Shown here: piece by piece, positions 5,310 through 5,703 of the stretch
Numbering within the stretch: position 1 is the first letter of the stretch
Layout: each line of letters begins with the position of its first letter
Virus record (IMG/VR): IMGVR_UViG_2636415858_000001
From: a virus
Lineage: Duplodnaviria > Heunggongvirae > Uroviricota > Caudoviricetes
Strand: one strand, 5' to 3'
Length of the DNA: 9,344 nt
The notes under the pieces: model-generated
The model's database searches: none
Told to the model about the DNA's origin: nothing
The model's input: the letters and a program-made list of their open reading frames with translations, nothing else
Made by a program: the position numbers and the translations under genes

Positions 5310-5467
5310 CGTTAGTTCTCCTTAATTGGTGCGCTGCACCGCACGATTTTTGGTTGCACGAATCCCTCGCCATAAGGCGATTAAAAGTTTTGGTTTCGTT
5401 TCAGTAAATGCCCCATCCAGAGGCACTTAGTGCAACGGGCGGCTGCCATCGCCAGTTATTTTCCCCA

Positions 5468-5550
5468 CTCAATTGAAAGCGCGTTCCGGAGGTTTTGGAC
5501 TTAACGAACTGGCACTTAATGACAAGGGACAGAACGCGCTTTCAGTTGAG
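5468..5550 (+). other. 19-bp inverted repeat with a 45-nt spacer (candidate structured RNA or protein-binding site)
   Basis: CTCAATTGAAAGCGCGTTC (5468-5486) and GAACGCGCTTTCAGTTGAG (5532-5550) are reverse complements except one position, which is a G-U wobble only if the plus strand is transcribed. Two GGCACTTA-containing direct repeats (near 5421 and 5500) lie in the same non-coding region. Confidence 0.4.
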
Positions 5551-5703
5551 TAAAAAGGTGGCTATTCATCAGAACATTGTCGCCTTCATTAGGTTTATCT
5601 GTTGAAGATCTGTAAGCCGCTTATAAATAAGTAGATATAAGATATTAGGAAAAGAAGAAGGACGTTATAGTTTTATTTGTGATGTGCAAAGTATATTTGA
5701 ATA

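Follow-up and report, generated by a model that had tools for sequence, protein, structure and literature searches.

A conserved hairpin module with compensatory changes in the leftward early leader of lambdoid enterobacterial prophages

In the lambdoid prophage of the Caudoviricetes record IMGVR_UViG_2636415858_000001 (9,344 nucleotides; the whole stretch is hereafter called the window), a non-coding interval at positions 5310-5700 contains a long hairpin, which we designate H1. A first-pass annotation had described the interval as a non-coding hairpin region upstream of the early-left genes, and our results support this description; the hairpin is conserved in relatives and carries compensatory changes. 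Together with its paralogue H2, which lies across a tRNA or short-RNA cassette from it in related prophages, H1 makes up a genuine structured element that is conserved, lacks annotation and belongs to a general kind already known. On the evidence of sequence comparison it is a discrete, mobile module of approximately 95 nt belonging to lambdoid enterobacterial prophages. We tentatively propose, with a probability of about 0.4, that H1 acts in cis as an RNA hairpin of the leftward early (PL) transcript, most likely as a double-strand-specific processing and insulating site.

The arms of the inverted repeat, previously given as 19 nt and near-perfect, are 20 nt long (5467-5486 and 5532-5551), complementary at 19 of 20 positions and separated by 45 nt. 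When 5250-5760 was shuffled 200 times with dinucleotide content preserved, the longest inverted repeat allowing a single mismatch averaged 10 nt and reached a maximum of 14 nt, compared with 20 nt in the native sequence. The sole core position that is not a Watson-Crick pair joins T5474 and G5544, a C·A mismatch in the minus (mRNA) sense and, as had been observed, a G·U wobble only in a plus-strand transcript. Folding of both strands, one of the checks suggested earlier, gave approximately −34.6 kcal/mol for the 95-nt segment on either strand, with z values of −4.7 (minus) and −4.6 (plus) and none of 200 shuffles as stable. Read in the mRNA sense, the full helix occupies 5462-5556 on the minus strand and comprises 26 bp (−34.6 kcal/mol): a basal extension (5462-5466 with 5552-5556), in which a U-run faces GGGGA through U·G and U-A pairs, the 20-bp core (5467-5486 with 5532-5551) and the loop of 45 nt. 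Interrupted by one mismatch only, the helix of the window copy is the most perfect of the H1 family. When 54 distinct H1 copies were aligned, one half of the loop (5497-5509, minus strand; GGACTTAACGAAC on the plus strand) proved conserved, with the family consensus GATTTAACGA, and the remaining half was hypervariable; RNAalifold found no conserved structure within the loop on either strand. H1 is not built like an intrinsic terminator, a GC-rich hairpin that has a short loop and runs straight into a U-run on the transcribed strand: its loop is 45 nt long, and the sequence that comes after it is AAAAAGG when read on the plus strand or GGGGAAAATAAC when read on the minus strand. The proposed Rfam search came back empty for the hairpin, as Rfam 15 gave no match at E≤1 in 5310-5700 and no relevant match at E≤10 in the homologous 1-kb region of mEp390. 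A full-text literature search for the arm sequence returned no paper.

Pairing and covariation were quantified for the 19 core pairs in 28 representative H1 and H2 copies. Sixteen of these pairs are paired in at least 96% of the copies, and sliding the partner by 1-3 columns reduces pairing from 92% to 21-52%. Covarying arm substitutions in homologous prophages, the second check put forward by the first-pass annotation, are present: five core pairs have changed on both sides, and the observed covariation score was reached in 0 of 500 shuffles. The inner stem differs between the paralogues and nevertheless remains complementary (GCGCGTTC/GAACGCGC as against GCGCACTCC/GGAGTGCGC, that is, GTTC/GAAC in H1 and ACTCC/GGAGT in H2), and in two species (L150/L154) it reads GCGCGCTC/GAGCGCGC (GCTC/GAGC). 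Very divergent copies keep the architecture with new sequences, such as AAGAGC/GCUCUU, or GG/CC in place of UG/CA. Across the family the outermost 13 bp hardly vary, and H1 and H2 have them in common. Among 124 copies retrieved without constraining the right arm, that arm is identical in 121; the left arm is polymorphic, with A and G toggling opposite T, and the rare right-arm changes restore Watson-Crick pairs. We conclude from these substitution patterns that the pairing is under selection.

The 390-bp interval had been treated as one unit. A conserved part is indeed present, as a module at 5306-5558, but the rest, an AT-rich stretch at 5559-5700, is unrelated to it. The module is 88% identical to E. 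coli prophages that differ from the window in repressor, rightward genes and first leftward gene, and approximately 76% identical to mEp390 and another prophage; GDSC2BY4G shares the hairpin part alone. Most of the 170 matching E. coli genomes carry only the proximal part, 5329-5414, which in phage 2H10 is found upstream of a yfdR-like gene. Pattern scans, the result of which held with either arm as bait, placed H1 in more than 120 IMG/VR contigs. A third scan recovered the hairpin from 21 contigs of species-representative genomes. About 17 of these contigs belong to Enterobacteriaceae (Kosakonia, Enterobacter, Kluyvera, Citrobacter, Raoultella, Buttiauxella and others), and of the four matches from elsewhere, two are clear chance matches without a real helix. 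In total the hairpin family covers more than 130 viral or prophage contigs, phage mEp390 and about 17 enterobacterial species, with every member in the leader of a PL operon.

The relatives reveal the usual setting of the hairpin. In the mRNA sense, their order is PL, a conserved leader, the H2 hairpin, often a tRNA-Arg(UCU), the conserved segment GCUGUGUGKAGUCUU, a terminator-like hairpin with a U-run, H1, a 5' untranslated region (5'UTR), the gene g35 and a gene for a ParB-like protein. The first three bases of the tRNA-Arg(UCU) belong to the base of the H2 stem. The terminator-like hairpin occurs in three covarying versions followed by the U-run, and H1 starts directly at that U-run; downstream of H1 the 5'UTR contains three small hairpins. 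No function is assigned to g35, the first gene after H1. The ParB-like product has a ParB helix-turn-helix domain and is homologous to chromosomal ParB. Its gene is present in 107 of the 113 loci with enough flanking sequence, the exceptions being five loci that resemble the window in carrying an HD-hydrolase gene and one other, and its linkage to H1 persists even where the intervening leader differs. A covariance model built from H1 and H2 retrieved only H1 and H2 copies, all of them in the PL leaders of 60 loci, and exactly one copy in the window (74 bits, minus strand); the same search found none in the rightward (PR) operons of these loci and the window. When viral contigs were scanned by pattern for paralogues having a different inner stem, all matches were unrelated and due to chance, most of them in coding sequence.

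The cassette between H2 and H1 can be followed on the minus strand in L159 (862-1036), L003 (5258-5425) and L004 (4212-4300). Between the two hairpins the relatives carry a conserved GCUGUGUG(G/U)AGUCUU and then a strong hairpin with a U-run, which together make a candidate terminator-ended small RNA. The GCUGUGUG(G/U)AGUCUU segment is complementary to codons 3-5 of g35, and a C/A variant mostly matches its target, in two lineages only. Complementarity between a small-RNA seed and the g35 mRNA in the relatives was set aside, because with only two lineages linkage is inseparable from covariation. In L078, L026, L100 and L006, an alternative leader follows H1, in which a 23-codon Trp-rich open reading frame (ORF), MSLFWLDWKNVICPLSGGRFFWR, is found approximately 100-270 nt downstream in the mRNA sense. 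This ORF overlaps an intrinsic terminator, GCCCGC-UCAGCG-GCGGGC with a U-run, just before the first gene, a layout that resembles a translation-coupled attenuator.

In the window, homology with all relatives ends directly after the U-run (AAAAAGG on the plus strand), at a recombination junction at 5558-5559. Past this point the relatives continue with the terminator-like hairpin, the tRNA-Arg or short RNA, and H2. Judged by these alignments the window is a recombinant that has kept H1 with its U-run and 5'UTR, has lost H2, the tRNA and the terminator-like hairpin, and has gained the HD-hydrolase gene. Its H1 is an orphan copy in a degraded prophage.

According to our proposal, H1 would be read in the mRNA sense as a helix of 25-26 bp, in which about 11 bp form the lower stem and 9-10 bp the upper one, capped by a loop of 44-48 nt, half of it conserved. 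Across the family this corresponds to the 19-bp core with an extension of 5-6 bp. The middle of the helix would hold a 1x1 mismatch, a 2-bp step and then a 1x1 or 2x2 mismatch, of which the window copy has the first only. An RNase III-type site calls for a helix of at least 20 bp, approximately two turns, on the transcribed strand, and H1 offers 26 bp with one C·A mismatch in the minus sense. Cleavage of this helix by RNase III, together with H2 on the other side, would separate the tRNA or short-RNA cassette from the downstream early-left mRNA, and processing at H1 could set the 5' end, stability or translation of that mRNA. We infer both the cleavage and its consequence, as well as transcription through H1, the last from the map: PL, a boxA and terminators lie upstream of the interval, and therefore any PL transcript that reaches the HD-hydrolase gene would cross 5700-5310 in the minus sense. 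Such leftward transcripts must pass the terminator-like hairpin at 5702-5724, at the 3' end of the preceding gene, in order to reach H1.

This proposal should be interpreted with caution, as several observations weigh against it. RNase III has no need for sequence conservation, but hardly any change is seen in the outer 13 bp or in one half of the loop, which points to an additional, sequence-specific partner and keeps three alternatives in play, namely a put-like or factor-binding antiterminator, a DNA site for the ParB-like protein and a rightward antisense RNA. The terminal loop of 45 nt is also much larger than in the classical T7 sites. G·U pairs that form solely in a plus-strand RNA are frequent at core positions 6, 9 and 10 (27 cells in the 18 arm combinations of H1 and 14 in the 12 of H2), which by itself would favor an antisense RNA, and RNAalifold gives H1 a better energy on the plus strand (−26.4) than on the minus strand (−18.7). 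Finally, the basal extension could be partly coincidental, since any U-run formally pairs with any purine run.

Other strand-specific features point in the opposite direction. For H2, RNAalifold favors the minus strand (−24.6 vs −19.0), and among inner-stem wobbles the ratio of minus-only to plus-only is 3:0 in H1 and 7:1 in H2. Below the core the helix is extended by pairing, through U-A and U·G, of the U-run 5' of H1 with a conserved GGAGAA (GGGGAA in the window) 3' of it. In 36 distinct flank pairs this extension has 82 minus-only and 23 plus-only cells, and in the window 6/6 of its pairs form in the minus sense compared with 2/6 in the plus sense. Such pairing also accounts for the way in which H1 keeps its U-run and TTCTCC flank across recombination junctions. 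In divergent copies the apparent wobble positions of the core are A·G or U·U, unpaired on both strands, and positions 6 and 9/10 together with a bulge in H2 are irregular in the mRNA sense in 11-19 of the 28 representative copies, a few copies being perfect. The recurrence of these irregularities in H1 and H2, including the divergent copies, thus suggests a conserved mid-helix irregularity rather than selected plus-strand pairs. A scan for sigma-70-like promoters detected 0 sites on either strand of 5200-5800, no U-run or terminator directly follows H1 on the plus strand, and every oriented neighbor in the relatives (the tRNA-Arg, the terminator-like hairpin with its U-run, and the genes) is on the minus strand. 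Taken together with the minus-only wobbles and the basal extension, these features favor the mRNA sense for H1, although we do not regard the question of the strand as closed.

The first-pass annotation had hinted, from the single wobble in the arms, at a structured antisense or small RNA from the plus strand. In this scenario H1, and H2 in the relatives, would be transcribed rightward and act on the leader. The wobble does recur, at core positions 6, 9 and 10 in most family members, and both the better plus-strand RNAalifold energy of H1 and the contrast between a near-invariant right arm, whose rare changes restore Watson-Crick pairs, and a left arm toggling between A and G would fit such an RNA. 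Nevertheless, a promoter is missing from 5200-5800 and none is visible in the relatives, the promoter and terminator of its own that an OOP-like RNA would possess are lacking, and transcripts running rightward out of the genes would be halted at 5329-5352 by a conserved hairpin that is terminator-like on the plus strand. Considering also that inner-stem and basal-extension wobbles are minus-only, that in divergent copies the wobble positions pair on neither strand and that the neighbors are minus-strand, we find an antisense role unlikely. The annotation's other suggestion, a processing or antitermination structure in a long leftward transcript, fits better. Of its two halves, antitermination is the more doubtful, and we give it a low probability: a nascent hairpin, put-like or otherwise acting in cis, would modify RNA polymerase or recruit a factor and so allow read-through of leader terminators. 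H2 does precede the terminator-like hairpin and U-run, H1 precedes the intrinsic terminator in leaders of the L078/L006 type, several leaders have no recognizable N gene, and the existence of two paralogues, whose stem sequence is conserved and parts of which covary, recalls putL and putR. Against this stand the lack of any PR-operon copy under the covariance model, chance matches only in blastn (word size 7) against the HK022 PL region, and a single long hairpin with no conserved second stem where put has two adjacent stem-loops. In the window, moreover, H1 is located downstream of the sole clear terminator (5702-5724), and the perfect boxA found there at 6632-6644 is in itself suggestive of a Nus-type mechanism. 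The phage mEp390 comes from a Nus-dependent collection, and mEp phages were isolated as Nus-dependent, unlike put (PMC11893012).

The strong linkage of H1 to the ParB-like gene, even where the intervening leader differs, could be taken to mean that the inverted repeat is bound as double-stranded DNA or as a cruciform, for instance where the ParB-like protein or its partner loads or acts on an operator, and the near-invariance of the outer 13 bp in both H1 and H2 exceeds what simple RNA pairing needs. However, the arms are 45 bp apart, with a difference of about half a helical turn between H1 and H2 spacing, whereas known ParB sites are contiguous palindromes of 13-16 bp. The unequal constraint on the arms (the right one invariant in 121/124, the left one polymorphic) is unexpected for a symmetric dimer site, the inner arms of H1 and H2 differ within one phage and stay complementary, and the window has no ParB-like gene, so that we consider a DNA-level function improbable. 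For this particular prophage H1 might also be an inert leftover of recombination, whatever its role in intact phages. The partners upstream (H2, the tRNA and the terminator-like hairpin) and downstream (g35 and the ParB-like gene) are missing, and the prophage has suffered two IS3-family insertions and a stop codon in a neighboring gene. The whole module including the U-run is nonetheless intact, its helix is the most perfect of the family, and 5306-5560 (255 bases) is 100% identical in the six near-identical E. coli genomes among the matches listed, with 5250-5760 being 99.6% identical in 16, which makes a functionless relic a poor prospect. A further joint reading, to which we assign little weight, is that H1 and H2 form an undescribed class of sequence-specific leader RNAs that bracket the tRNA or small-RNA cassette and gate the early-left operon via a dedicated partner. 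That partner would be either RNA polymerase, in which case the element would antiterminate without a protein factor, as put does, or a phage protein, for example the ParB-like/g35 pair. It would recognize the 13 nearly invariant base pairs of the outer stem together with the internal loop and the half-loop, both conserved.

Several further identities were considered for the hairpin and dismissed. A promoter inside the loop is contradicted by the variable spacing of the −35/−10-like hexamers among loop variants, and the promoter scan finds none. A role of the arms as operators was rejected because the module is common to phages with different repressors. By eye, the window arms match the RYYYAAC/GTTRRRY motifs at 6/7 and 7/7 positions, but an integron attC-like reading was rejected, as nothing in the surroundings belongs to an integron, the fit is poorer in most of the family and the mosaic junction lies at 5558 instead of at G|TT.

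The rest of the conserved module comprises the untranslated leader of the HD-hydrolase gene, whose start codon (5309-5307) and Shine-Dalgarno sequence AAGGAG (5323-5318) define its left end (5306-5323, minus strand). Five nt upstream of the Shine-Dalgarno sequence on the mRNA is a ribosome-binding-site-proximal hairpin, GTGCG-CTGCAC-CGCAC (5329-5344, minus strand). The small palindrome reported next to the ribosome-binding site exists, but it is this hairpin that is the conserved structure: in the relatives its 6-nt loop is invariant and its stem occurs in four covarying forms (GCGCT/AGCGC, GCGCC/GGCGC, GCGTC/GACGC and GTGCG/CGCAC). On the plus strand the hairpin is followed by a conserved T-run, GATTTTTG (5345-5352), and so resembles an intrinsic terminator, which could serve against rightward antisense transcription entering the leader from the early-left genes. 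Two more minus-strand hairpins belong to the 5'UTR, a tetraloop hairpin TCGCC-NNNN-GGCGA (5367-5380) with an invariant stem and a freely varying loop (ATAA, AAAA, GATT, GACT and GGTT among others), and a small GC hairpin, GGCGG-CTGCCA-TCGCC (5438-5453), with GGCGA/TCGCC stem variants in relatives. A P1-type parS, which the TCGCCA boxes at 5367-5372 and 5449-5454 may resemble, was not retained; the ParB-like protein of the relatives matches chromosomal-type ParB.

The paired GGCACTTA repeats singled out by the first-pass annotation are present (5422-5439 and 5511-5528, 14/18 identical), yet they were rejected as a signal, because an equal or better pair occurred in 22 of 60 shuffles, i.e. at chance level, and the pair is not conserved. 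The first copy includes GGCACTTAGTGC (5422-5433), which contains the 9-bp palindrome CACTTAGTG; the relatives conserve GGCACTTAGTGAAAC. The second copy, which most relatives lack, falls within the hypervariable part of the H1 loop. The AT-rich spacer at 5559-5700 is common only to near-identical E. coli prophages, is outside the H1 family and belongs with the neighboring gene and its terminator; no sigma-70-like promoter was scored in it. As had been stated, no convincing ORF exists here: the longest in 5310-5731 encodes 36 aa, none is conserved in relatives, and coding potential was rejected for all ORFs of at least 20 aa in 5300-5735 as short and unconserved.

The prophage lies downstream of a proA-like gene and is integrated next to a tRNA-Thr(CGU) (1369-1441). 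Its minus-strand genes encode an integrase (1459-2622), the HD hydrolase, which is yfdR-like (4773-5309), an AT-rich moron of PHROG 17948 with a hydrophobic N-terminus (5732-6328) and a LexA-type repressor (6838-7512), beyond which rightward genes specify Cro-like and CII/YmfL-like proteins. The moron has an in-frame TAA at codon 47 in the window, whereas the version in E. coli ECONIH4 is intact; at its 3' end is the perfect 10-bp terminator-like hairpin TAGAACCCGC-CCA-GCGGGTTCTA (5702-5724). Two IS3-family elements on the plus strand, one with orfA and orfB inside the early-left region (3113-4268) and one running from 9018 to the right end of the window (9018-9344, with an ALIL frameshift pseudoknot at 9299-9344), indicate that the prophage is decaying. 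Leftward of the repressor gene, all on the minus strand, the first element is a terminator (6826-6807), followed by a good promoter, PL, with the sequence TTGACA-16-CACAAT (6798-6771), which is inside tandem operator-like repeats, and by a perfect boxA, CGCTCTTTAACAA, in the PL leader (6644-6632). No N-like ORF was found between PL and the moron.

The tandem repeats that surround PL, ACAATGTACCCCATGGACAC (6745-6800, minus strand), are presumably the left operators of the LexA-type repressor. A small hairpin with an AAGCG/CGCTT-type stem (6664-6646, minus strand) immediately precedes the boxA CGCTCTTTAACAA, in the boxB-boxA order of rrn leaders, and the same combination is also present in locus L006. 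Approximately 30 nt downstream of PL, L017 (~5310-5325, reverse complement) and L004 (~4727-4738) share a perfect 12-bp palindrome, GGCACATGTGCC, within a leader of about 170 nt that is conserved between phages of different immunity; L017 carries HK022-like operator sequences.

The early-operon leaders of lambdoid phages are where the lysis-lysogeny program is run at the RNA level, through nut and put sites, RNase III sites and small RNAs. Absent from Rfam, widespread in enterobacterial prophages and tightly linked to a tRNA or short-RNA cassette and a ParB-like gene, the H1/H2 family offers a concrete starting point for testing how early-left transcripts are processed or controlled in lambdoid phages that are atypical or lack N. 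In genome annotation, H1 can serve as a recognizable non-coding module and as a marker of mosaic junctions. For the window itself the practical conclusion is modest, as it concerns an orphan copy in a degraded prophage.

Among the known systems with which H1 can be compared, a lambda-type nut site (a CGCTCTTTA-like boxA and then a short boxB hairpin whose pentaloop is rich in purines) is excluded as its identity, because the only leader-strand boxA is 1.1 kb upstream. The window has two boxA-pattern matches, the one in the leader (6632-6644, minus strand) and one at 4374 (plus strand) in coding sequence; the H1 arms match boxA at about 6/8 positions by eye with no boxB-like element, and the presence of nut in both early operons is not shared by H1 and H2. 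The HK022 sites putL and putR are, like H1, structured RNAs of a lambdoid early leader, with no evident N gene near several of the H1 relatives, and they too form two paralogous copies with conserved and covarying parts, each upstream of terminators. They act through factor-independent modification of RNA polymerase, which is blocked by mutations in the rpoC zinc finger. In contrast to put, both H1 and H2 are in the PL operon and none is in PR, each is one long hairpin instead of two stem-loops of ~65-70 nt, and there is no sequence similarity.

Small RNAs of the early-left region, such as lambda PreS/LPR1 (bioRxiv 10.1101/2024.10.31.621285), are likewise non-coding functions encoded there, and the relatives of H1 carry a candidate terminator-ended short RNA next to it. 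H1, on the other hand, has neither terminator nor U-tail on either strand, and the window lacks the neighboring candidate. Lambda sib/tI offers a parallel of a different kind, a terminator juxtaposed with a longer double-stranded structure whose full helix exists only in read-through transcripts. Since the base of H1 is made by the U-run that ends the upstream terminator, the full H1 helix would likewise exist only in transcripts that have read through. The two differ in that sib is downstream of int and controls the upstream gene, whereas H1 is in a 5' leader with a core hairpin separate from the terminator hairpin.

Phage RNase III signals, both the intercistronic T7 R1.1 type and the lambda PL-leader hairpin between nutL and N, have a helix of about two turns with a central irregularity and are placed between functional units. 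H1 has no sequence relationship to them, its loop of 44-48 nt is half conserved, and the conservation of its stem sequence goes far beyond what recognition by RNase III would demand. It resembles them, in a comparison that draws on established knowledge, in being a long helix of about two turns in a phage early transcript. The small mid-helix mismatches of most H1 and H2 members may correspond to the central irregularity of these signals, and H1 shares with the lambda N-leader site its position in the PL leader upstream of the first gene.

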